From NCBI GenBank assembly GCA_041657405.1, contig JBBABX010000001.1, forward strand, positions 106,316-170,315: DNA of 64,000 nt. The letters are read 5' to 3'. Of this stretch, positions 5,704 through 62,694 are shown in pieces (the stretch's first letter is position 1; each line of letters starts with the position of its first letter). Source of the stretch: Minisyncoccota bacterium (lineage in GTDB: Bacteria; Patescibacteriota; Minisyncoccia; Phycocordibacterales; XYD1-FULL-46-19). The notes under the pieces are model-generated. The model saw only the letters and a program-made list of their open reading frames with translations. It had not been told where the DNA came from and searched no databases. Made by a program: the position numbers and the translations under genes.

Positions 5704-7050
5704 ATGTTGGACAAAATTTTACATTGGTTAAAAAAGTTTATTCCTCGCCAACTTTTTGTCGCGGTTCAGCCTCTTTATCACTATTTGCTTGCTTGGTTAG
5801 GCGCAATTATTTATCGTTTCCCCGCACGTCAGTTAAAAATTATTTTTGTGACAGGAACTAAGGGCAAAACCAGCACAACCGAAATCTTATCTGCCATTTT
5901 GACCACCGCTGGGCATAAGGTTGCTTCCACTTCCACTCTACAGTTTAAAATCGGCGACAAAATCGAGCGCAATCTTTACAAAATGAGTATGCCTGGTCGG
6001 ATGTTTATGCAAAAATTCCTCCGCCGAGCCGTCTCAGCCGGCTGTGATTTTGCCGTAATAGAAGGCACCTCGGAAGGATCCAAGCTCTTCCGCCACAAAT
6101 TTATTGATTTAGATGGCTTAATTTTTACCAACATCTCCCCCGAACACATTGAGTCACACGGCTCATTTGAAAAATATTTAGAAGCCAAGTTAGAATACGC
6201 CCGCGCGTTGGATCAATCAAAAAAGGCACCAAAGTTTCTGGTGGTTAATTCCGATGACCAAGAAGCGCAAAAGTTTAAGGACCAGGCCCCATCCGCTATA
6301 CAACTAGAATTTTCTCTCGCCCAAGCCAAACCTTTTGACACCACCCTTGCTGGCTCAAAATTAACGATTGACAGCAAAGAGGTGAAAACGGCTTTGACCG
6401 GTCAATTTAATGTCTTGAATATTCTGGGCGCAGCCAAAATGGCCAAAATCTTTGGCGCAACTGATGACGATATTAAAAAAGCCCTCGCCAACCTAGGCAA
6501 AATCCCCGGTCGGATGGAAAAAGTTTTTTCTGATAAACCAGGACAAAACTTTGAGGTGATTGTAGATTACGCCCACACTACCGACTCTCTCGCTAAAGCC
6601 TATGAGACCCTAGGCGATAGACGAAAAATCTGCGTCTTGGGTAGCTGTGGGGGTGGACGCGATAAGTGGAAAAGACCACAAATGGGAAAGGTGGCCAGTA
6701 ACCACTGTGATTATATTATTCTCACCAACGAAGATCCCTATGACGAAGATCCAGAACAAATTATTGCCGAAGTCGCCGAAGGTATCACCAAACCTTATGT
6801 TAAAATTTTGGATCGTCGCGAAGCGATTCGCGCGGCCATCAAAGAAGCCAAAGAAGGTGATGTCGTCATTATCACCGGCAAAGGCACTGACCCATACATT
6901 ATGGGGCCGAGTGGTAAGAAGATGTCTTGGAGTGATTATGAAGTGGCAAGGGAAGAGATGAGCGCGGACTTAACGCAAAAATTAGGTGAAATCGGCCGAC
7001 AACTTGGCGGTTGGAAGAAAGATTTGCAAGCAAAAACTCCCCGACCTTAA
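5704..7050 (+). CDS. murE: Mur ligase family protein, most like UDP-MurNAc-L-Ala-D-Glu:diamino-acid ligase MurE
   Basis: Walker A VTGTKGKTST; DYAHT motif; GSCGGGRDKWKRPQMG (MurE GCGGDRDxxKRPxMG); C-terminal ITGKGTD. Confidence 0.7.
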   Translation: MLDKILHWLKKFIPRQLFVAVQPLYHYLLAWLGAIIYRFPARQLKIIFVTGTKGKTSTTEILSAILTTAGHKVASTSTLQFKIGDKIERNLYKMSMPGRMFMQKFLRRAVSAGCDFAVIEGTSEGSKLFRHKFIDLDGLIFTNISPEHIESHGSFEKYLEAKLEYARALDQSKKAPKFLVVNSDDQEAQKFKDQAPSAIQLEFSLAQAKPFDTTLAGSKLTIDSKEVKTALTGQFNVLNILGAAKMAKIFGATDDDIKKALANLGKIPGRMEKVFSDKPGQNFEVIVDYAHTTDSLAKAYETLGDRRKICVLGSCGGGRDKWKRPQMGKVASNHCDYIILTNEDPYDEDPEQIIAEVAEGITKPYVKILDRREAIRAAIKEAKEGDVVIITGKGTDPYIMGPSGKKMSWSDYEVAREEMSADLTQKLGEIGRQLGGWKKDLQAKTPRP

Positions 7051-7065
7051 GCCGAGGAGAAAACC

Positions 7066-7190
7066 AACAGTTGTGGAAACACGAACCGGGGACGGTCCTC
7101 GGCGCGCCAAACATTGTCGTTGGACAAGCAATACACGTGCACCCTGAACCGAGCATCGCCAAGCCAGTAGACGTCAGCAACGAAGAATTC
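7066..7190. repeat. copy A of ~125-bp diverged direct repeat (duplicate of the 3' end of gene 7487..8086)
   Basis: about 88% identity to 7494..7618 by eye, mostly transitions; in the minus frame encodes EFFVADVYWLGDARFRVHVYCLSNDNVWRAEDRPRF... vs gene C-terminus EFFVADVYRLGDARFRTHVYCLSDDNVWRAEDRNRF... Confidence 0.7.
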
Positions 7191-7486
7191 ATGCGATAAA
7201 TCATCTGTGCCACAATCGGCCAAATCATGACCGATTGAATATTATATGAGACATTATAAGTCCTCCAATTTATCGCACCAACTGAATATTTTTTGTTTAA
7301 GAAAAATGTGAATCCACTCTTTTACAAGACTTGCCCGACAAAATTCTCAAGCACATATTTTCACAATCATAACACCGAAGCCATGACCGTGAGGAATCCA
7401 TAATTGCTTGATTATTATAATAAAATCCCCTGGCGCCCCGAAGGGTCCAAGGGATTGAGAGTCTAAGTGACTGAAGGAGCAAAGAG

Positions 7487-8086
7487 TCAGGGGGGCCATT
7501 GCGGAACCACAAACCGGTTACGGTCCTCGGCGCGCCAGACGTTGTCGTCGGACAAGCAGTACACGTGCGTCCTAAACCGGGCATCGCCAAGCCGATAGAC
7601 GTCAGCAACGAAGAATTCCTCGTCATTTTCTGTCCCCTTCTTCAGCTTTACGCTGAAAAGGAAGAACGTGGCCAAACCTTTCGGATGAAGTTTGTCGGAA
7701 TTAGCCTCAAAGAAAGTTATGATCTGGTCTTGCGACCAGAACAACTTCTTGAAATCATCCACACCAAACCCTCCGAAGATCTGCTCGAAGGTGCCATCTT
7801 TGATCATTTCAAAGACCTCAAACGACGCTTCTTCGGTGACGGGACTAGCTACGTCCGTCCCCCAGAAATCGAGTTTGAGGTAACGTGCTCCGGTTGTGGC
7901 ACCGAGAACACCAATGGTGATCTTGCGAAGATAGGGGTTGCTATACGTCTCATCCACGATCTGTTGAAGCATCCTCGTAACTTTTTCCAGATCACGTTTG
8001 TCATCCACCAGAAGTTTACAGACAGTGGCCCACAGTTTAAAGAGACGTTCCCAGACATTCTTCTCAACGTTCTTGTCACTACTCAT
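7487..8086 (-). CDS. hypothetical protein (199 aa), GC-rich orphan
   Basis: long ORF. A same-phase antisense ORF 7499..8122 also exists; substitutions between the duplicated 3' segment and copy A are mostly synonymous or conservative in the minus frame, favouring the minus-strand gene. Confidence 0.5.
   Translation of the reverse strand: MSSDKNVEKNVWERLFKLWATVCKLLVDDKRDLEKVTRMLQQIVDETYSNPYLRKITIGVLGATTGARYLKLDFWGTDVASPVTEEASFEVFEMIKDGTFEQIFGGFGVDDFKKLFWSQDQIITFFEANSDKLHPKGLATFFLFSVKLKKGTENDEEFFVADVYRLGDARFRTHVYCLSDDNVWRAEDRNRFVVPQWPP
7494..7618. repeat. copy B of ~125-bp direct repeat (native 3' end of gene 7487..8086)
   Basis: see copy A. Confidence 0.7.
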
Positions 8087-13122: not shown

Positions 13123-13596
13123 TTATCCATCATTAATTTCGTCTTTCGTTTTCTTTTGAAAATCGCTCACAAAATCTCTTTCAACGATCCAAAGAATAGC
13201 AAAAATAAACAATATCAAACCTGTCGCCACCAATGCCAACCAATACAGACCAAAGCCACAAGACAAGCCAACCCCGGCCGCCACCCACATTCCCGCTGCT
13301 GTAGTCAGGCCAGTCACCTTGCCAGCCTTAGACATAATCAAACCAGCTCCAAGAAAACCGATACCGACAATTACCTGTGACGCCATCCGTAAGGGGTCAA
13401 AATTTATTATACCAATCGTTTGTTCTGTTACCAATTTTGAGATTATTGCAAAGAGGGCGGCCCCCAAACTGACCAAAGCAAAAGTCCTCATCCCAGCGAC
13501 CTTACCCGCCAAATTTCGTTCAAAACCGAGACAAATACCAAGGGCCATTGCCAAGACTAGACTTAAGATTATTTCACCATTTAATATTCCCAACAT
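13123..13596 (-). CDS. MgtC/SapB family membrane protein
   Basis: LAMALGICLGFERNLAGKVAGMRTFALVSLGAALF typical MgtC N-terminal domain; 4-5 TM. Confidence 0.75.
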   Translation of the reverse strand: MLGILNGEIILSLVLAMALGICLGFERNLAGKVAGMRTFALVSLGAALFAIISKLVTEQTIGIINFDPLRMASQVIVGIGFLGAGLIMSKAGKVTGLTTAAGMWVAAGVGLSCGFGLYWLALVATGLILFIFAILWIVERDFVSDFQKKTKDEINDG

Positions 13597-13654
13597 AATT
13601 AAATTAAATTATTTTATAGTATTTATATTTTAGAATCTTTTCTTAAAAAAAACA

Positions 13655-13690
13655 AAAAAAAACGGCTTTTACACCGTTTTTTTGTTTTTT
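13655..13690. terminator. bidirectional rho-independent terminator (aaaaaacgg-cttttaca-ccgtttttt flanked by A-run/T-run)
   Basis: seen directly between the convergent 3' ends of mgtC-like and the 13703..13909 gene. Confidence 0.6.
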
Positions 13691-13702
13691 GATTAGTGAT
13701 TT

Positions 13703-13909
13703 TTACTCGGAAACTTCAGAAGTAGTTGTGACTTCTTCTTCAACAACTTCTCCTTCCATAACCTCGCCCATATCACCTTCAAGGTCGGTTGTTTCTTCGG
13801 TTAAAACTTCAACCTCACCCTCTGGGGTAACCGGAGCTTGAGACTTGAACCAAACCACGCCAATGATAATCAAAATGATTACAATAGCGACGATAACGTA
13901 ATTTTTCAT
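13703..13909 (-). CDS. small membrane-anchored protein with acidic Glu/Val/Thr-rich tail
   Basis: N-terminal TM MKNYVIVAIVIILIIIGVVWF then EVEVLTEETTDLEGDMGEVMEGEVVEEEV. Confidence 0.4.
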   Translation of the reverse strand: MKNYVIVAIVIILIIIGVVWFKSQAPVTPEGEVEVLTEETTDLEGDMGEVMEGEVVEEEVTTTSEVSE

Positions 13910-14069
13910 GAGATATAGTTAGATTACCTTAATCGACCTTTGCTTAATTGCAAAATAAAATATTGCAGTTTTATCATATAATATTGAGCTTTTTAAAGCA
14001 AGTTTTTAAAATGTGGAAAAAGATCACTATTTTATCTAAATGACAAGAAGAAAACTTCTTATTTAAAGA

Positions 14070-16412
14070 TCACAAATCAAACCAAGATCGCCCACAATCA
14101 TAACTAACTAAAAGTGGCACTGGTAATTTAACAGTTTTTTCCATTGTCAAACAAATAATTTTTTTCACTTCTTCAACGACATCTTCTGCTGTTTCATAAA
14201 TTAATTCATCATGGATTTGCAACAAAAGGTGAGCTTTCTCTCCCAACCCAGCTTCCTTCAATCTTTTTTCACCCTCTATCATCGACAACTTAATTATATC
14301 AGCCGCCGTGCCTTGAAGCGGGGCGTTCATTGCCATTCTTTCGGCCGCCGCCAAAATTTGTGGCAATGGAGATCTAAGCGCCGGTAAATAACGACGACGT
14401 CCGAATAAAGTTTCGGTGTAGCCTTTTATTTTGGCATTCGTTACCACTCCTTCAAAATAATTTTTGATAGTGGGAAAAGTTAAAAAATAATTAGCCATAA
14501 ATTGCTCTGCTTCTTGTTTGGTAGCACTAAGACTGGTTTTTAAAGCATTCACTCCCATCCCATAAATAATTCCAAAATTTATGACTTTAGCTCGCCGACG
14601 CATTTCCTTGGTAACGGCCTCTTCTTTAACCCCAAAAACCTTCGAGGCTACCGCAGAATGAATATCTTTGTTTTCCTTAAACACCGCTGTGAGATTTGGG
14701 TCTCCCGACAAGGCTGCTAGCACCCTTAATTCTATTTGTGAATAATCAAAAGACAATAATTTAAAACCTGGACGGGCAACAAATCCCCCTCTAACAGCAG
14801 TCCCTAGGCCAGCCCGCGCTGGGATATTTTGTAAATTTGGGTTATTAGACGACATCCGACCAGTGGTCGTGCCATTTTGATTAAATGTAGCATGGAGAAC
14901 GTTTTCATGGTCAAGCATTGTCGGAATATTGTCAATATAAGTAGATAATAATTTTTGCAATTCTCTATATTCTAAAATTTTTTCAATAACGGGATGAATA
15001 CCTTTTAGTTTTAAAAGTTCTGATTCACGTGTTGACCTAGCACCTGTCGCTGTTTTTTTGAGTCCTTTGACAGAAAGTTTTAATTTATCAAATAAAACTT
15101 CTCCTAGTTGTTTCGGCGAATTAATATTAAAAGTTTCTTCGACAAATTCATAAACCTCATTTTCTAATTTAGATAATTTAATATGATAATCTTGTGATAA
15201 TTTTTTCAAATAAACAGTATCAATTAAAACCCCTCGTTTTTCCATACTTTTGATAATTGGCAATAGGGGTTTTTCAATTTCTAACCAAACTTTTTCCAAA
15301 CCTTTATCTTTTAATTTATTTAGAATTAATTTTTCCGCTTCAAGAAGATTATCACAACCAGCAAATTGCAAAATATCTTCTAATTTAGGAACAGTTAAAT
15401 CAGAATTAAGAAGCCACACCATAACTCCCACCCGACGGATATCTTCGGGGTCAATTTCTTCTTCATTTTTACTTGATTCTTCTTTTATTTTTAAACCTTC
15501 CCCAAATTTTAAATTTTTGAGACGGCCAATCAAGCTACGAAATTCTAAATCCATAAAAATTTTTTCTACTGGAAAAAAAGAAAAGGTTTCCGTCCAAGTT
15601 TTTTCTGGTAACGAAAACTCGATCGGCGCATCATAACGAATAGTCGCTAAAGTTTTTGAGAAAATTGCTTCTTCTTCATTTTCTTTTAACAGGTTTACAA
15701 TTCTTGTTTTTACCCCTCGATTTATAAAAATTTTTTCATCTTTTTTTAATTTTTTAAAAATTTGTTCTATTGAACCAAATTCTTGAATTAAAATTGTCGC
15801 CGTTTTATCACCAACACCCGATACGCCAATAATATTATCTGACGGGTCGCCCTTGAGCCCTTTAAAATCTGCTATCAAAGCTGGCGCAAAACCATAACGT
15901 TCTCGGATATTTTTTTCGTCGTAAATTACAGTATCAGTTAAACCTTTACGTAAAGTATAAACAATAACTCTATCACCCTTCACCAACTGAAGAGTATCCA
16001 TATCGCCTGAAGCAATAATAATTTGTAAATTATTATTAGTCTTGAGTTTTTCAACGATAGTGCCTATTATATCGTCAGCCTCAAAACCTGGAGCATCATA
16101 GATTGGAATGCCGAAGGCTGTAAAAATATCACGCGCGCGGATAAGTTGGGCTATTAATTCGGCTTCGGCTTTAGGTCTCCCCGCTTTATAGCCTTCATAG
16201 GCTTGCTTGCGAAAAGTTGTTTCCGCTCGGTCAAAACAAGCCACTAAATAATCTGGTTTGAGGTCAGAAATTATCCGCATCAACATCGTCGCCACCCCAT
16301 ACAACCCACCAGTTGGCTCACCTTGACTAGAAACAAAGTCAGGCAAAGCATGATAAGCGCGGTGGATAATTGCATGCGCGTCAAAAAGAACTAATTTTTT
16401 CTTTTTCCCCAT
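14070..16412 (-). CDS. polA: DNA polymerase I (5'-3' exonuclease + polymerase; 3'-5' exonuclease region reduced)
   Basis: N-terminus KKLVLFDAHAIIHRAYHAL (FEN domain); pol motifs ...RRRAKVINFGIIYGM... and ...QIHDELIYE...; 780 aa with only ~130 aa where the proofreading domain would sit. Confidence 0.95.
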   Translation of the reverse strand: MGKKKKLVLFDAHAIIHRAYHALPDFVSSQGEPTGGLYGVATMLMRIISDLKPDYLVACFDRAETTFRKQAYEGYKAGRPKAEAELIAQLIRARDIFTAFGIPIYDAPGFEADDIIGTIVEKLKTNNNLQIIIASGDMDTLQLVKGDRVIVYTLRKGLTDTVIYDEKNIRERYGFAPALIADFKGLKGDPSDNIIGVSGVGDKTATILIQEFGSIEQIFKKLKKDEKIFINRGVKTRIVNLLKENEEEAIFSKTLATIRYDAPIEFSLPEKTWTETFSFFPVEKIFMDLEFRSLIGRLKNLKFGEGLKIKEESSKNEEEIDPEDIRRVGVMVWLLNSDLTVPKLEDILQFAGCDNLLEAEKLILNKLKDKGLEKVWLEIEKPLLPIIKSMEKRGVLIDTVYLKKLSQDYHIKLSKLENEVYEFVEETFNINSPKQLGEVLFDKLKLSVKGLKKTATGARSTRESELLKLKGIHPVIEKILEYRELQKLLSTYIDNIPTMLDHENVLHATFNQNGTTTGRMSSNNPNLQNIPARAGLGTAVRGGFVARPGFKLLSFDYSQIELRVLAALSGDPNLTAVFKENKDIHSAVASKVFGVKEEAVTKEMRRRAKVINFGIIYGMGVNALKTSLSATKQEAEQFMANYFLTFPTIKNYFEGVVTNAKIKGYTETLFGRRRYLPALRSPLPQILAAAERMAMNAPLQGTAADIIKLSMIEGEKRLKEAGLGEKAHLLLQIHDELIYETAEDVVEEVKKIICLTMEKTVKLPVPLLVSYDCGRSWFDL

Positions 16413-53329: not shown

Positions 53330-54028
53330 TTAAAAATGATTTAAATTTTTAGGTCGATACTGAAATGCTTCTAACAAATGTTCTTCTCTGATATCTTTTT
53401 CTTCAGCGAGATCCGCAATCGTGCGAGCTAATTTAATAAGTCTATGATAGGCACGAGCTGAAAGGTTTAACTTGGAGGCTGATTCATTTAATAATTTTTG
53501 GCAGACGTTATTAAGTGGGGCATATTTTTCTAAATCCCTAGTATTCATCTCGCTGTTATAATATTTATTTCTTTCTTTTAGTCGTTCAGTTTGAATTGCA
53601 CGAGCTTTGACAACTCTTTCAAGAACTTTTTGGGAATATTCTCCTTTTTCTGTTTCGCTTAACTTTTTATATTCTACGGTGGGCACTTCTAACCATAAAT
53701 CAATGCGATCTATGACTGGACCGGAAATTTTATGTTGATATTTTTGAATTTGTCCCATTGAACAAACACATTCTTTAACGCGTGAACCAAGATATCCACA
53801 AGGGCAAGGATTCATTGCAGCGATCAAAATAAAATTAGCTGGGAAGTTCATATGTCCGCGCGAACGAGAAATACTTATGACCCGATCTTCTAAAGGTTGA
53901 CGCAGGGCCTCAATCACTTTTTTGTCAAATTCCGGAAATTCATCCAATGCCTTTGTCCCACAATTGTCTACTGGCTCACTTTTTAGTAGTATCTGACCAT
54001 GTACGACAATGGAAGTGTAGGAGAGCAA
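53330..54028 (-). pseudogene. comM: comM/yifB (Mg-chelatase-like competence protein), 5'-truncated: only the C-terminal ~230 aa present
   Basis: hallmark LDEFPEF...ALRQPLEDRVISISR...AAMNPCPCGY; Lon-like N-domain and Walker A are absent; homology stops at the junction with GC-richer foreign DNA. Confidence 0.7.
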
Positions 54029-54211
54029 ATACTGAATGGGGTCTTTAATGCCCTTTGGATTATTGCCCTACCTTTTGTTGGTATCTATCTATTATTGAAA
54101 TGGTTTGTTGTGGGAATAACAAAAGAAACTGGTAATAGGATTATAAAAATAGTGGGTGGAGCAATTGCTGTCGGAATAGTTGGATATATCTCAACTTTCT
54201 TTCTCAATTAA
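53999..54211 (+). CDS. small 2-TM membrane protein at the island edge (tentative)
   Basis: ATG ORF, 70 aa, hydrophobic (WIIALPFVGIYLLLKWFVVGI..., GGAIAVGIVGYISTFFL). Confidence 0.3.
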   Translation: MYDNGSVGEQILNGVFNALWIIALPFVGIYLLLKWFVVGITKETGNRIIKIVGGAIAVGIVGYISTFFLN

Positions 54212-54213
54212 AT

Positions 54214-54246
54214 TGTAGGACGTTTCTTATAAGGTGTGTCCCACAA
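54214..54246 (+). repeat. copy 1 of 33-bp hairpin motif TGTAGGAC-N16-GTCCCACAAA
   Basis: tgtaggacgtttcttataaggtgtgtcccacaaaa; seen directly. Confidence 0.6.
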
Positions 54247-54248
54247 AA

Positions 54249-54632
54249 TTAACTACTAGGATTGCAATTTAAGTATCTAAATGAATTATTTTGTCCTTGC
54301 CCCCAAGCCACCACTATTTTTTTATTAAGATACCTGTTTCTTATCTCATCGGGAGCAATTTTTCCTTCAAACTCCCACTTTGTGGGTTCGTACTCAGCTT
54401 TTTTCCATCTATCTATACTAAATACACCCTTTACTCTGTTTTGGTAAATAGCTAGTGCATAGTCTACTAAATCTTTAGACTCGCCAGTTTTGCTTAAAGA
54501 CCAAGCTTGTTTGGCTATATCGTAAATAGAGTTCTCATCCCCTTCCATGTGGGGTCTATAAGTTTGCGATATGTTCAACAATATAACTTTATCCTCTATG
54601 TCTTCCAGTCTAATTTCTTCTAAATTCTCCAT
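54249..54632 (-). CDS. hypothetical protein (127 aa)
   Basis: ORF; divergent partner of 54880..55581; bracketed by the hairpin-motif copies. Confidence 0.4.
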   Translation of the reverse strand: MENLEEIRLEDIEDKVILLNISQTYRPHMEGDENSIYDIAKQAWSLSKTGESKDLVDYALAIYQNRVKGVFSIDRWKKAEYEPTKWEFEGKIAPDEIRNRYLNKKIVVAWGQGQNNSFRYLNCNPSS

Positions 54633-54810
54633 GCTTTAATTGTAGCAAAGCGGTAGCTATTACAAAAAGTCTGCCCCACAATACGTTACTATTTAGGTAT
54701 GGTTTCAAAATTAAGAGCTTCAATCATTGTAGTGATTGTTGGACTAGCTTCTTTCTGGTTGGGTATGCAGACAGTAGTTCCTTGTGATTGTATTTCCAGA
54801 TTTGCTCTAC

Positions 54811-54843
54811 TGTAGGACACGATTTACGGTACGTGTCCCGAAA
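54811..54843 (+). repeat. copy 2 of 33-bp hairpin motif (tgtaggacacgatttacggtacgtgtcccgaaa)
   Basis: seen directly in the divergent intergenic region, ~37 nt upstream of the 54880 start. Confidence 0.6.
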
Positions 54844-54879
54844 CTTGCTTTACGTTGGTAGTCATATACGATAGATTCT

Positions 54880-55581
54880 ATGCCGAATAATAATTTCCAA
54901 ACACTACTGAAATTCTTTCTGGATGAGTTTGAAATGGAACTATTATTTGATCAAAGAAAACCTCAAAATATACAAGAAGGGATTTTAATCACTATCTTTA
55001 ATAGGATAAATGATATTCATACAATAATAGAACGACTTGGTCGTTACGATGTTTATTTTGATGCTTTTTATCCAGAAAATGATAGTCAGATTAGTGACGC
55101 TGAAGCAATTGAGTATCATCTCCACAGTTACTTACAGGACTTTTATTCTTTAAACGAGAAAGTTAATAGATTACTAGGATATATAAAGAACAATATTAAA
55201 CATTTTGATGTTGGTAATCCAGATGTTGTTAAAAAATTATTGGAACACTTACTCAATCAGGTTGGAAATGGTTTGAAGCAGGTTAATAATTTACGTGGTG
55301 ACCACGTCCATGACATGTCTGTTCGTGACAGTGAAATCTCAAGAGCAAAAATGCTTAAGACTTTAATGGGTTTTCATGAGGGAATTGACGAGCAAGCTGT
55401 AAAGGAAAAATACCAAACCATTATTGTAGAGACAAAGAAGAAATATGTTGGTCAAGCAGAAGCCAATAGAGAACAATTAAATGGAATGCGAAACTTTATC
55501 GCCCCAAGACTAGGACATGTTATTGCTTTCTTATATCAAAAGGACAGCTCTATATTTGAGAAAGAAATGTCACAAAATTAA
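54880..55581 (+). CDS. hypothetical protein (233 aa)
   Basis: ATG ORF, no recognisable motif. Confidence 0.45.
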   Translation: MPNNNFQTLLKFFLDEFEMELLFDQRKPQNIQEGILITIFNRINDIHTIIERLGRYDVYFDAFYPENDSQISDAEAIEYHLHSYLQDFYSLNEKVNRLLGYIKNNIKHFDVGNPDVVKKLLEHLLNQVGNGLKQVNNLRGDHVHDMSVRDSEISRAKMLKTLMGFHEGIDEQAVKEKYQTIIVETKKKYVGQAEANREQLNGMRNFIAPRLGHVIAFLYQKDSSIFEKEMSQN

Positions 55582-55694
55582 GTGACAACTACTGCGGTTA
55601 ACGTCCTGTAAAAGATTACGATAGTTAACGTATCCTCTCGTACGCGTGTACGCGCGCGGGAATGTGCCTTAAATATGGACTTGGGATATTGGTT

Positions 55695-55728
55695 TGTAGG
55701 ACAGCTATTAGTATTTCTGTCCCACAAA
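55695..55728 (+). repeat. copy 3 of 33-bp hairpin motif (tgtaggacagctattagtatttctgtcccacaaa)
   Basis: seen directly between 55581 and 55870. Confidence 0.6.
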
Positions 55729-55869: not shown

Positions 55870-57294
55870 ATGAACAAGGAAGCAATCGAATACATACAAA
55901 ATCAAATGAACAGAAGTGAGGACAGGCTTCGCCCGTATGTTTTTGCTACACCTACGTTCACCTTCCCTGAACGCCATGTTGTTATTCGTATTAAAAAGTA
56001 TGTTTCTGATTTTCTTGGAGGGAAACGAGACTTTCGTTGGGTAGTTGTGCCTGGTCTTCGTGGAGTTGGTAAGACAACTGCAATGGCACAAGTCTTTCTT
56101 ACTGCGAAAACAACTCGAACAAAAAGTGACTTTTTATATATGTCTGTTGATGACCTCACTACCAGAGGTCTTTCGTTGAATGATGCTCTGGATGCATACG
56201 AAGTAATTTTAGGAAAACCATTTGAAAAACTAGACAGCCCTGTCTTGATGTTTATTGACGAAGTACAACAAGATCCAAACTGGGCAGCTATTCTTAAATC
56301 ACTTCATGATAGAGCAAGAAATGTATTTCTCTTCTGTACTGGTTCGTCTGCTGTTTCTCTCCAGTCAAACCCTGATGTAGCTAGACGTGCACAATTTGAG
56401 AAATTGTACCCATTGAGTTTTGGTGAGTACGAGATGATTAAAAATAACATCTTTCCGCAAAAGGGTCTTAAAGAAAGAATCAAGGAAGCTTTATACGGTG
56501 CTTCAAATGCAGAGGACGCATATAACAGACTCAAACCATTGGAAGCTTCTGTCGCTTCACAGTGGGCAAAATTTGACCGCTCAAATATAGACGAATATCT
56601 ACTCAATGGTACGTTACCTTTTACGCTCAAAGCAATTACTCCTAACGCCTACGACAACATAAATATTCTACTCGATAGAATTATCGACAAAGACATCAAA
56701 GAGTTGGGGCAGTTTGACGCGGCTACCTTAAGTGCAATAAAACGACTTCTTTTCATAATGGCTGACAGTGACATCATCAGTGTCAACAAAGTGAAAGACA
56801 TCATAAACCTAAGCTACAACACAGTGATGTCCGTGTTGGATGTTCTGGAACGTGCGGAGCTTATTATTAAAGTTCCAGCACAGGGTTCTAAAACAAGCCA
56901 AGCACGCAAACCATCAAAGTATCTGTTTATGAGTCCAGCACTTCGTTCAGCATTGTTGAGTGTGAGTGGTGTAGAGGGTACTTATCTCGCACGCAAAGGG
57001 AAATATTTGGAAGACATCGCAGGGCTACACTTCTATCGAGAATTTGTTGCTCCACGTATTGGCTCTCTTACCCACGACCCAACACAAGGGAGTGCTGATT
57101 TCATTTTACAGATAGCCGACAAGAAACAGTTAGCGTTTGAAATGGGACTTGGTAGAAAGGGTTATGACCAAGTCAAAACAACAATGGGAAACTTCAAGAT
57201 TGATTTTGGAGTGGTTGTTTGTGCAACTGACCTCATGCTTTCAAGAGAAGATAATGTTCTCAAACTACCATTGGACTATTTCCTATTGATGTAA
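55870..57294 (+). CDS. AAA+ ATPase of the AAA_14 + DUF4143 architecture
   Basis: Walker A VVPGLRGVGKTTAM, Walker B LMFIDEVQQDPNW, ...FCTGSSA...; GC-rich. Confidence 0.65.
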   Translation: MNKEAIEYIQNQMNRSEDRLRPYVFATPTFTFPERHVVIRIKKYVSDFLGGKRDFRWVVVPGLRGVGKTTAMAQVFLTAKTTRTKSDFLYMSVDDLTTRGLSLNDALDAYEVILGKPFEKLDSPVLMFIDEVQQDPNWAAILKSLHDRARNVFLFCTGSSAVSLQSNPDVARRAQFEKLYPLSFGEYEMIKNNIFPQKGLKERIKEALYGASNAEDAYNRLKPLEASVASQWAKFDRSNIDEYLLNGTLPFTLKAITPNAYDNINILLDRIIDKDIKELGQFDAATLSAIKRLLFIMADSDIISVNKVKDIINLSYNTVMSVLDVLERAELIIKVPAQGSKTSQARKPSKYLFMSPALRSALLSVSGVEGTYLARKGKYLEDIAGLHFYREFVAPRIGSLTHDPTQGSADFILQIADKKQLAFEMGLGRKGYDQVKTTMGNFKIDFGVVVCATDLMLSREDNVLKLPLDYFLLM

Positions 57295-57339: not shown

Positions 57340-59104
57340 TCACGAGCCTTTTTTATTTGTGGTTGTGCCTTTATACATACCTGGATTAGCAACAAGCAAA
57401 TCACGGCTCCGCTCATGCTGACTCAATGTTTTGATATGCAATATAAGTCTCATGTTGTCCTGCTGTGAAACAGGCTCGATGTGTTTATCACTCATCACAC
57501 GTGTCGAAACGGGAAACCTAAAGAATACCTCGGCATAGTTCTTCTTAGGGAATAGGTTAATCCTCTCAATGAACAAACGAAGTATGTACTGCTTATCCTC
57601 GTAGCTGACGTTTTCCAGTCTCGTCTTGATTTGCTCGTACAACTTTTTAAGCACAACCCCTCTATCTTTCCGTTCGTCACGTTTAATGAGTACCTGTTCA
57701 AACTTAGCTTTCTGATTCTCCATTGCTTCAATGTTCTCGTTACACTCCTTTAAGTGTTGCTCACATTCTTTCTCTGGAAGACTCTTAAACATGAAAGCTC
57801 TGGTAATTCGAGCACGTTGCTCTAGGAGTGATTTGATTTGCTTCTCACACTGAGCAATTTTCTCATTTGCTTTTTCTGCACTTGAATTCTTGAATGTGTA
57901 CTCTTCCAGTTTCGGTATGACATTCTCAGGGTCTTTAAGTATGGAAACGAGACACTCCCAAATCGGCTCGAGTCGTGTCTCGGCGTACTGATATCGTACA
58001 AATTTATTCTCTGGATTATTCGCGTTCTCTAACATATGTGTGATAGTACTTTCCTAGTGTCCGTGAGTCCTTTCCAACTTTTGGAGTTTGGTACCCACTT
58101 TGCAACTTGTTACCTGTCTCTCCACAATAAAGGAGTGTTGAGTACAGGTATGGTCTCTTTGTGTTTCGCTTTGAGTTCTCTCGATTCTTTTTGAGTTGCT
58201 GTATTGAAGCCTGAAACATTTCCTTACTAATGATCTGCGGAACTTTAATTGGTATCCATTCTTCTTCTGGTCTCTGATGTTCTTCTTCAAGTACAGCGTC
58301 AAGATACTTAAATGGTCTCTTGTACTTCCTGTAGTAGAAATCTCCTGTGTATACCTCGTTAACCAAAAGACGATTTATGCTCCGCTTCCACCAGTAGTTA
58401 AACGTCTTACGTTTTTTCTGGGTGTTGTGTTTTGGAGCCGGCATTTCCAATTGATTTGCTCGCTTCGTAATCTCAGTGAGTGAGCAACGCTCGTACACAA
58501 GCCAGTGGTAGAACTGCTTCACGACCTCAGCTTCCTCTGGAATGATTTCCAATTGCTTAGTCTTCTTATCTACCTTATAGCCATAGGGAGGAACGCCAGT
58601 GACCCACTTGTTGTCTCGTGCCGCCTGTTCACGTCCTCCACTCATTCGTTCCCTAATAACTTCACGTTCAAGCTCTGCAAGACTCCCCAACATTTGAAGT
58701 ACGAATCTTCCGTTTGGTGTACTGGTATCAAATGATTCAGTAGCCGACTTGAATTCAATATCAAGTTCGAGAAGTTTCTCAACAGCGTCTAGGAGCTTTC
58801 TGGTACTCCTAAAAAATCTGTCTAGACGATACACAATAACGATGTCGAACTTCTTTGCCTTTGCGTCCTCAAACAATTTCTTCAATCCGTCACGTTTCTC
58901 AATCGCCAGTGAGCCAGATTTACCCTCATCTCCGTATGTGAGTATATTTTCAATATCATACGAATCAGGTTGGCTCTCGCAGAACTTCTGCAAGCGTTCC
59001 TTTTGTACTTTGATTCCATACTTATCATCCTTTGCTTGCTCATCAGTAGAAACTCGTGTGTACAATGCAACTCTCTTCTTTTGTATATTTAACTCAGTCA
59101 TCAT
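57340..59104 (-). pseudogene. large serine recombinase (resolvase catalytic domain + recombinase domain + coiled-coil) interrupted by a 1-nt frameshift at ~58016-58035
   Basis: N-terminus RVALYTRVSTDEQ (catalytic Ser); ORFs 58016..59104 (362 aa) and 57340..58035 (231 aa, coiled-coil) overlap by 20 nt in different frames; combined ~590 aa is typical for this family. Confidence 0.7.
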
Positions 59105-59108
59105 TACA

Positions 59109-59360
59109 TTACTTATTGATTACACCCCTAAAGATTCTGCGTAGATGACGTGTTAGCAACATGCGATACATCCGCTTGATGTTGGGAAGCAATTTTTTTG
59201 ACATAGATTGATTTTTAATATCGATACAGATATTTTTCTCATTAACTGGTAAATTGTGTTTGTTACAATATTCAAGCAAAGACGCTTTCTGCCCCTCCGC
59301 TTCTTCATTAGTAGATGTACGTATGTACAATGCTACATTGGGATTTTTTACATTAGTCAT
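59109..59360 (-). pseudogene. second serine recombinase, N-terminal catalytic fragment only (83 aa)
   Basis: NVALYIRTSTNEEAEGQKASLLEYC... parallels the resolvase catalytic motif; truncated after ~80 aa; directly upstream of the large recombinase. Confidence 0.5.
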
Positions 59361-59571
59361 AATTTTTTTGGTTAAATCTCACTACCAGTCGTCCGTCCTT
59401 GCTCTTTACGTAGAATTTCTTTGATTTAGGAAACCCTGACTCAATGAGCAAGTTCCTGACGAAGCTTTCTGGTGTGAATCTTTTAATTTTGCGATTGGTT
59501 TGTTTTTTCATATTCCTATAAAACGCTGTATTTAAGCCATTTATAGGACATATTAGATACGGATAGGACAA
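59353..59571 (-). CDS. hypothetical basic 72-aa protein
   Basis: ORF only. Confidence 0.3.
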   Translation of the reverse strand: MSYPYLICPINGLNTAFYRNMKKQTNRKIKRFTPESFVRNLLIESGFPKSKKFYVKSKDGRLVVRFNQKNYD

Positions 59572-59839
59572 CTAAGTACAGGTAAGTACAACTATTAGCT
59601 GTCTATAACTTTTCTGAAAATCGCGCGTGCAGACCCCTTTCTACTTTCTGGCAAAGAAAATAAATGAATTCCTGCCTGGCTCATTTCAAACTACATATCC
59701 AGCAAACAAACCATTTTGTAATTTATCTTTTAATTAATAATTATCTTTTGTCTGAATCACTGTGAGTATACTTTGTGCCTTTTTACGTGAATCTCCCTGA
59801 TACAACTTTGAATCACCCTGATTCACGTGACCGTACTCA

Positions 59840-61862: not shown

Positions 61863-61984
61863 TCACTAATGATAAACAAAACTCGCCAAAATGACGAGTT
61901 TTACGTTTGTGGTAAGTAAACCACACACCTGACCCTTTCCATACCTCTAAGAGTGTCTGAGGGACTCTGGTATTGGTAGATATC

Positions 61985-62464
61985 CTACTGCGAACCTACA
62001 GAAATTGACCCTGAACCACTTTTGACCACCTGACCATTAACTTTGGCAGTAAACGAAAATGTCTTAATTCCGTTCATTCCATGCACAGAAGTTGGGCCTG
62101 TGTTGATGTCAAAGTAGACACTTGTACCAAGACCAGGAGCTATTGCCTGACTCGATGAGAATGTTTTGTCATAGACCGAGCCTCCCTCTGCGTTTATGAG
62201 GTCAATGTTCACATCACCAGCGAAAGGTTCGTTGTCATTGTTTTTAATATTGAAAAAGTATCTGTACTTACCACCAACCTCTTTAACGTTTTGACTGGTA
62301 ACGGAAATATTTTTTTGTTCCTGTGTGACTTCTGGTGTTGATTTTATTTTCTCGTTAGAAGAAAACAAACTCACTACCGTAACCACTGCAACTATTAAAA
62401 GAAGTCCAAAGAAAAGACCTTTTAGGAATTTCCAAATTCCAGAAAGTATTTGATTTTTATTCAT
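61985..62464 (-). CDS. secreted or membrane-anchored protein (159 aa)
   Basis: N-terminal TM/signal LKGLFFGLLLIVAVVTVVSLF. Confidence 0.4.
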   Translation of the reverse strand: MNKNQILSGIWKFLKGLFFGLLLIVAVVTVVSLFSSNEKIKSTPEVTQEQKNISVTSQNVKEVGGKYRYFFNIKNNDNEPFAGDVNIDLINAEGGSVYDKTFSSSQAIAPGLGTSVYFDINTGPTSVHGMNGIKTFSFTAKVNGQVVKSGSGSISVGSQ

Positions 62465-62694
62465 ATGTTGTGCCTAACGATTTGTAATGTCTGGTGGACA
62501 AACAAAAATCCGGCCACCAGGAAGGCTCCGAAGAACCTCTACAGAAGTTTCCCTCTGCAACGTTAGGCACGCCCTGAATGACCGGGTTTTTGTGCCTAAC
62601 GATTTCGACCATACCTTACAGAAAATCCATAAGGGTTAGGTCATTCAATATTCAGTTGTAACTACATGGTATTACTTTCGGAGTAAGAAGTAAA

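Follow-up and report, generated by a model that had tools for sequence, protein, structure and literature searches.

Probable spare attP sites for different comM codon alleles in an integrative element of Patescibacteria

The interrupted comM gene and the motifs beside it

We analyzed a 64,000-nt stretch of the genome of a Minisyncoccota bacterium (assembly GCA_041657405.1, contig JBBABX010000001.1, positions 106,316-170,315), referred to below as the window. An island that interrupts comM (yifB) in this stretch carries three intact copies of a short motif with inverted arms. The motifs had been noted in an earlier reading made from the sequence only. Genes identified in the island encode a DNA methylase, a replication-O-like protein, a large serine recombinase (LSR), an AAA_14/DUF4143 ATPase, and proteins of 127 and 233 aa. 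Loci of relatives are given L-numbers.

The 3' fragment of comM is located at 53330-53947 (- strand) and comprises the gene from the Walker-B Asp-Glu on. Its open frame continues into the island to 54028. This open reading frame (ORF; 53330-54028, - strand) matches positions 108-207 (of 207) of the Pfam Mg_chelatase profile as well as Mg_chelatase_C, with homology from ORF residue 24. The 5' part of comM (323 aa) is beyond the end of the window. The same locus was retrieved from other assemblies by exact-protein look-up, and in one such copy (L016) the 5' part was identified at 6542-7513, 11.8 kb from the 3' part. Thus, the DNA between the two halves is an inserted island. Its far end is ~1.8 kb outside the window, which holds the comM-distal ~10 kb of the ~11.8 kb element.

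The + strand has exact matches to TGTAGGAC-N16-GTCC at 54214, 54811 and 55695, compared with 0.05 matches expected by chance (100 shuffles). The three same-strand copies are located where the sequence-only reading had placed them. Copies 1 and 3 have the form TTGTAGGAC-N16-GTCCCACAAA, and copy 2 is a weaker version (CTGTAGGAC-N16-GTCCCGAAAC). No further full copy was found in a pattern scan of the other 62 kb of the window. The count of three full copies is correct, but a fourth, half copy (GTCCCACAA at 53955-53963) was overlooked. It is located exactly at the start of comM homology, and the break of comM at Mg_chelatase profile position 108 coincides with it. All copies, three intact and one half, are within 1.8 kb of one island. 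The ends of the motif are conserved as described, but the conserved arms are 9-10 bp (TTGTRGGACA / TGTCCCACAA) rather than 8 bp in length, and apparent extra stem pairs of the motif belong to these arms. The spacers had been described as unrelated, which does not fully hold: every central pair has T as its second base (in comM sense), and the bases adjacent to the arms are conserved.

The motifs fold well as hairpins (up to -23.6 kcal/mol, z = -7), their + strand begins with a REP-like GTAG, and copy 1 is between convergent genes. These features could indicate repetitive extragenic palindromic (REP)-like repeats, or RNA hairpins that serve as terminators or processing signals. However, a terminator scan called none of the three sites, and neither strand has a T-run after them, in line with the earlier remark that they are unlike simple terminators. 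The combination of a GC-rich stem and a T-run that defines an intrinsic terminator was not found at any of them, and a scan of the island for Rfam families identified nothing at the motifs. The many dispersed copies typical of REP elements (which are RAYT-associated) are also lacking, as all copies in the 64 kb are in the one island. In 596 Gb of genomes the exact long motif has 7 matches, a number at the level of chance, and one of the 7 is in a related element (L003, a Saccharibacteria metagenome-assembled genome). A widespread REP-like family is therefore rejected; neither the window scan nor the 596 Gb scan gave the genome-wide spread that the sequence-only reading had considered as an alternative. 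Furthermore, halves of the sites are fused to halves of comM in relatives. We consider explanations based on REP-like repeats or RNA hairpins to be almost certainly wrong. The hairpin potential of the motif would be a by-product of an inverted repeat for dimer binding.

Integration junctions and the use of alternative sites

The island is an LSR-encoding integrative element of Patescibacteria (Candidate Phyla Radiation, CPR) that is inserted in comM/yifB at the Walker-B codons (LF-L-DE). The LSR is encoded by two overlapping ORFs (57340-59104, - strand). The first (58016-59104, 362 aa) has Resolvase (Pfam, 9e-39) and Recombinase (1e-16) domains. The second (57340-58035, 231 aa) is the C-terminal part and matches positions 419-574 of the phrog_95 integrase. 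A zinc-binding Cys pattern was not seen in the LSR. ORF1 (~360 aa) ends with ...YYHTYVRERE*, and ORF2 (~230 aa) starts at an ATG within CACACATATGT, in the +1 frame. The same split was read in L017, L019, L022, L024 and L025. The ~360-aa length of ORF1 is found in nearly all homologues that are at least 63% identical, and nearly all of those that are at most 62% identical are single ORFs of ~590 aa. This pattern is better explained by a programmed +1 frameshift or a two-subunit integrase than by a pseudogene. The LSR homologues are from Paceibacterota, Saccharibacteria and other Patescibacteria. Directly upstream of the LSR gene is an 83-aa ORF (59109-59360, - strand) that resembles a resolvase N-terminus (…VALYIRTSTNEE…). 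In relatives its place is occupied by a 150-160 aa ORF with a Resolvase domain (L017, L037) or by a ~52-aa ORF (L022, L025).

The junction between island and comM in the window (53930-53963, - strand) is a hybrid, attR in comM sense, which consists of a P arm (TTGTGGGAC-aaaggca), TT, and the comM B' arm (ggatgaa-TTTCCGGAA). The crossover TT is at 53946-53947 (AA on the + strand). In comM sense this junction reads ...TTGTGGGAC AAAGGCA TT GGATGAATTTCCGG..., and the junction at the other end of the island (L016, ~7493-7530) reads ...GGAGTTTTATTC TT AGAGACT GTCCCACAA.... The two have in common only TT(A/G)GA. When rejoined at TT, the junctions restore comM (HRGVLF-L-DEFPEF) and predict that the attachment site of the element (attP) was TTGTGGGAC aaaggca TT agagact GTCCCACAA, with 9-bp inverted arms, a 16-bp spacer, and a central crossover. 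This is the architecture of the motifs, seen from the opposite strand.

An intact copy of the predicted TT attP is carried by L017, a related element in a different sample (611-644; 114/120 nt identity, core 34/34). At its two ends, the L017 contig has the halves of a different comM allele (LAHKGVLF-L / L-DEFPEFD), fused at CT to the halves of a site of the copy 3 type. These junction halves match the intact CT site of the window at 33/34 core positions, and attP and attB have only those 2 nt in common. Across the two comparisons (window junctions with the L017 TT site, and L017 junctions with the window CT site), attP/attB identity at the crossover is 2-3 nt. The comparison indicates that L017 entered comM via CT and kept a spare TT site, and that the element in the window entered via TT and kept CT, GT and AT as spares. 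Because a different site was used in each case, gene order is circularly permuted between the integrated copies.

The intact sites of the window are all on the - strand. The AT-type spare attP (copy 1, 54213-54246, crossover at 54229-54230) reads TTGTGGGAC acacctt AT aagaaac GTCCTACAA in comM sense, and an identical site is present in L017 and L003. The GT-type attP-like site (copy 2, 54810-54843, crossover at 54826-54827) reads TTTCGGGAC acgtacc GT aaatcgt GTCCTACAG, and its arms are the most degenerate of the window sites. The CT-type spare attP (copy 3, 55694-55727, crossover at 55710-55711) reads TTGTGGGAC agaaata CT aatagct GTCCTACAA. A weak, inverted att-like sequence was also identified at 61955-61990, on the + strand and thus opposite to the array (CTGAGGGAC tctggta TT ggtagat ATCCTACTG). 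It is at the 3' end of a 159-aa gene and may be a chance occurrence or a relic.

Contigs encoding LSR homologues (52-93% identity) were scanned for arms and junctions. In all but one of the scanned loci the insertion is in comM, at the same codon. A scan of metagenomes with the LSR gave 3 loci, of which L019 was the useful one, and LSR and motif scans of viral contigs (IMG/VR) detected no related elements. Site use was tallied for 12 element lineages (LSR identity 52-100%), which are related to each other, so the counts do not represent independent events. The CT site was used in 8 lineages (L017, L019, L003, L022, L025, L034, L035 and L039), at the Leu codons CTC, CTG or CTT. The TT site was used in 2 (the window and L024), at Leu TTG or TTA (TTG in the window), and the AT site in 2 (L030 and L037), at Met ATG (HRGVLF-M-DEF and HNGVLF-M-DEF). 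The crossover is at spacer positions 8-9 in 12/12 reconstructed events. The LSR gene is always co-oriented with comM in TT and CT events, and AT events occur in both orientations (inverted in L030, direct in L037), as is expected only of a palindromic central pair such as AT.

Unused sites are intact in every element with a readable array, and the sites of each such array all differ in their central pair. The window, L017, L019 and L030 have the order CT-GT-AT-TT in common, and a GT-type site is found at the same array position in L017, L019 and L030. Across lineages, majority identity ranges over 0.64-0.87 in the inner spacers and 0.82-0.91 in the arms, and it reaches 1.0 at the central pair, although this last value is partly circular because the central pair itself helped to define the site classes. 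Array position and spacer similarity support the probable orthology of sites between elements. The relative L037, which has a full-length LSR (60% identity), carries CT, GC, TT and AT sites at 13501-16023, with cargo that includes a PIN-domain protein between them. In this case, AT was the site used.

In comM, the crossover corresponds to codon positions 1-2 of the hydrophobic residue preceding the Walker-B Asp-Glu. This residue is L in 103, M in 14, V in 2 and A in 1 of the 120 closest ComM homologues. Leucine is encoded by TTR or CTN, methionine by ATG, valine by GTN and alanine by GCN. The residue classes correspond to the central pairs of the sites (L to TT and CT, M to AT, V to GT, and A to GC), and the GC site of L037 would match the rare Ala (GCN) comM alleles. 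The commoner an allele, the better its site is conserved: TT and CT sites were intact throughout, AT sites are present in most arrays, GT has degenerated or disappeared, and a single GC site was identified. The tally of events (10 at Leu, 2 at Met, 0 at Val) is also in keeping with the ComM residue frequencies.

Judged by sequence, the sites have every property of LSR attP sites. The element encodes an LSR (Resolvase, Recombinase, and a C-terminal part), the inverted arms of 9-10 bp are partly symmetric around the central dinucleotide of a 16-bp spacer, the element ends are hybrid attL and attR, and attP/attB identity is essentially the central dinucleotide. Polarity is also set by this dinucleotide, with a palindromic pair working both ways. 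For serine integrases, polarity is known to depend solely on the central dinucleotide, and no other identity between partners is needed (PMC3642061).

We conclude that the motifs are very probably spare attP paralogues of the LSR, forming an array for different comM codon alleles. The sequence-only reading had suggested operators, recombination sites in the sense of cassette boundaries, or processing signals. Recombination is retained, in the form of alternative attP sites of the LSR, but cassette boundaries, operators and RNA hairpins are not. The element would carry four co-oriented attP paralogues with the same arms and central TT, AT, GT or CT. An LSR dimer is predicted to bind the arms of any attP (TTGTGGGACA / TGTCCCACAA, 16 bp apart in a 34-bp site) as well as the comM segment, and to cut at the central 2 bp. 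Strand exchange would be completed only by the attP whose central pair matches the host allele. A single attP could enter only one codon family, because serine recombinases require the same central dinucleotide in both partners. In the window, the TT site was used (Leu TTG) and is split between the island ends, leaving AT, GT and CT as the intact spares that were seen as three motifs. The 127-aa and 233-aa genes and small membrane-protein ORFs would be cargo lodged among the sites, and not a unit that is regulated by them. In this interpretation, the window's own spare sites would be active, the GT site may serve Val alleles, and the array may be maintained by selection for a wider target range. 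If GT/Val events and events using the window-type AT site exist, their junctions would read ...GVLF + GT + aaatcgtGTCCTACAG and AT + aagaaacGTCCTACAA, respectively.

Several points weigh against this interpretation, in addition to the relatedness of the lineages and the circularity noted above. All of the evidence comes from comparisons of metagenome-derived contigs and assemblies. The LSR gene of the window is in two ORFs, and the activity of this copy is therefore not certain. Among the 12 lineages there is no integration via GT, and the GT site, with its degenerate arms, is missing in L003 and more distant relatives. The AT sites that were used are the L019/L030 and L037 versions, and the AT site of the window type is not among them. 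Finally, in a 65%-identical relative (L036, ~1330-1375 and 2106-2139), a CT-type right half-site and the conserved block that accompanies it adjoin comEC (GDAI|LV), not comM. This segment of comEC recurs in diverged form 1.3 kb on, with an intact TT site between the two copies. This junction may represent an off-target event or an alternative target.

The sites could be true attP paralogues and the array still be without adaptive value, if it consists of leftover duplicates or recombinants of single-attP elements that are carried along by hitch-hiking. The degeneration or loss of GT in several lineages would fit with this, as would the different array order in the distant L037 (CT-GC-TT-AT) and the cargo insertions, which show that the region is plastic. 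We consider it unlikely, however, given that TT and CT are intact in all arrays read over 60-100% LSR identity while the spacers diverge (in L039, at 52%, the end of the array is outside the locus). Furthermore, no repeated central pair was found in any element, three site types are in use with codon matching each time, and the degree of site conservation tracks allele frequency.

Genes and other sequences around the sites

Copy 2 is between divergent genes, and an att-like sequence is found upstream of the recombinase operon in all relatives. In the window, two overlapping att-like sequences are present there (59541-59594, - strand; TAGTTGTAC..GTCCTATCC and TAGTTGTCC tatccgt AT ctaatat GTCCTATAA). 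The sequence, with one good arm, is kept at 9787 in L022, 9787 in L025 and 9761 in L030, and is possibly an operator or autoregulatory binding site. In Tn3/gamma-delta, which have small serine recombinases, the resolvase bound to res sites also represses transposon promoters. Similarly, the intact copies in the array might be accessory or regulatory binding sites of the recombinase (operators or architectural sites), with integration through them only incidental. This is very unlikely for the copies in the array. In L019, the GT, AT and TT spares are back-to-back within 118 bp, with no genes between them to control. In addition, the genes adjacent to sites vary between elements, and orthologous sites are demonstrable crossover points. 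To our knowledge, large serine integrases do not have accessory sites.

The genes for the 127-aa protein (54249-54632, - strand) and the 233-aa protein (54880-55581, + strand) are correctly delimited in the sequence-only reading, which regarded them as an insulated module bounded by the motifs. This view is not upheld, as L017, L019 and L003 have the same sites without these genes between them. Both genes are thus optional cargo. It is reasonable to suppose, as that reading did, that the mobile element carries defense cargo. No Pfam match was found for the 127-aa protein, but it resembles the C-terminal half of the PD-T4-3 defense protein (PADLOC PDLC04031, E 5.9e-10) and matches phrog_5356 (E 1.6e-10), and the ATPase matches PDC-S01. 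The 233-aa protein is one of a rare family of which 9 members are known. Its all-helical bundle, in which R139-x2-H142-V-H144-D is invariant, could be assigned to no fold family. It is possibly HEPN-like, although this is not established.

The presence of genes between the sites in the window and L037, and their absence in L017, L019 and L003, might also indicate integron-like cassettes, with the recombinase inserting and excising one-gene modules between the sites. A lone arm-like sequence (TTGTGGGGC in comM sense; 54673-54681, - strand) at the other edge of the 127-aa gene indel (L016 compared with L017) could be counted in favor of this. However, differing central pairs forbid site-by-site serine recombination, and pairing of attP with attP is unproductive (10.1101/2025.01.03.631226). 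The edges of the indel are off the site centers. No gene called in the island has a tyrosine recombinase Pfam label, so a tyrosine integron integrase was not seen, and the R''/R' cores of integron attC sites (RYYYAAC / GTTRRRY) are absent from the sites, which end in TTGTGGGAC/GTCCYACAA. Boundaries of integron-like cassettes are thus a highly implausible role for the motifs. On both sides of the indel that holds the 127-aa gene there is a 9-bp direct repeat of the arm (TTGTGGGGC / TTGTGGGAC; compared with L017 320-336), which suggests gain or loss by short-repeat recombination and not by the recombinase. Several short assemblies (L009-L011, L014 and L015) independently break at ~54690-54720, between the 127-aa gene and the GT site, which hints at structural variation at the population level.

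Two small ORFs that are predicted to encode membrane proteins are also located among the sites. One gene (70 aa; 53999-54211, + strand) is between the TT and AT sites and has homologues with conservative substitutions in L003 and L017. The other (38 aa; 54699-54815, + strand) has its stop codon TAG inside the GT site and shows conservation at the protein level in L017 and L037. A conserved non-coding block of ~70-90 nt adjoins the CT site (55600-55690, - strand; ACTTTCCCGCGCGCGTACACGCGTACGAG...GTTAAC in comM sense). It is found next to the CT site in L003, L017, L019, L022, L024, L025 and L030, where the DNA is kept and the reading frame is not. The possibility that the block is a coding tail fused to comM was rejected, as the frame is not kept between lineages. 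It might bind a directionality factor, act as a promoter or encode a small RNA.

The AAA_14/DUF4143 ATPase gene (55870-57294, + strand; Pfam; PADLOC PDC-S01, E 2.9e-29) is in a variable slot between the LSR gene and the CT site. Other elements have different defense-like cargo in this slot, namely a reverse transcriptase with a helix-turn-helix protein (L017), SduA_C (L030), a helicase (L024) or a cyclic oligonucleotide-based antiphage signaling system (CBASS; L039). An RNA of the Rfam LOOT family (RF03000) was identified at 62522-62642 (- strand; 67 bits compared with a gathering threshold of 46, E 3e-11), between the 159-aa and 193-aa genes of the island.

Significance and comparison with known systems

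Beyond the locus in the window, it is likely that a family of Patescibacteria elements has evolved a built-in orthogonal set of attP sites (TT, CT, AT and GT, with GC in one lineage) for one LSR. This set would cover every NTN hydrophobic codon, as well as GCN, at the Walker-B position. A single element could then enter any host allele, at the cost of a permuted gene order. If correct, this is the natural equivalent of engineered orthogonal att sets. It would also be a previously undescribed route by which a site-specific element extends its host range with the specificity of the recombinase unrelaxed, and a testable account of how one conserved target is kept across diverged hosts. For genome annotation, circular permutation explains differences in gene order among related integrated copies in CPR genomes. 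As a source of tools, the locus offers short (~34 bp), mutually orthogonal sites that a single recombinase would recognize, and it suggests that this recombinase tolerates almost any inner spacer.

The individual sites are of the known LSR attP type, and it is the array of attP sites that sets them apart from described systems. As in the attP/attB systems of large serine integrases (e.g., Bxb1, phiC31, A118 and SPbeta), the sites are short and have imperfect inverted arms for an integrase dimer, crossover is at the central dinucleotide, hybrid attL and attR sites are found at the ends of the element, and the target is in a conserved gene. In contrast to the single attP of described elements, there are 3-4 per element here, with differing central pairs. 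The site is also compact (~34-36 bp conserved), and the recombinase is in two ORFs in this clade. In the literature searched, natural arrays of multiple attP sites are not described and multiple attP sites are found only in engineered constructs, although this is not proof of novelty. In a structural study, the presence of several attP sites in one cell was considered unlikely to be biologically relevant (10.1101/2025.01.03.631226). The strict central match has been seen as a limit on the choice of target, one that engineers turn to use for orthogonal sites. Judging by this locus, natural elements also take advantage of it, with several attP sites tuned to synonymous or conservative codon variants of a conserved protein motif.

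In engineered systems, one integrase is used with orthogonal att pairs (e.g., Bxb1 GT/GA) that do not cross-react, as set by the central 2 bp, to achieve multiplexed integration. The central 2-bp logic is the same, but those pairs are laboratory constructs, whereas here a natural set on one element matches codon variants of the target. Multi-targeting LSRs, reportedly described by Durrant et al., reach several chromosomal targets with one recombinase and a single attP, via relaxed attB recognition. Here, by comparison, there is a single target locus and breadth comes from several attP sites.

The CTXphi/XerCD-dif system is similar in that compatibility of the central region decides which allele is entered. 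However, it relies on host tyrosine recombinases, and different phage variants carry different sites, whereas here one element carries the array. In integron attC arrays, too, palindromic recombination sites alternate with cargo genes that are short or lack promoters. However, attC sites are recombined with attI or attC as folded single strands by a tyrosine integrase and do delimit cassettes, compared with the chromosomal gene partner, serine recombinase and incidental cargo found here. Islands of the AbaR/Tn6022 type in Acinetobacter likewise interrupt comM, but these are Tn7-like transposons with target duplications, in contrast to the site-specific integration by a serine recombinase in the elements described here.

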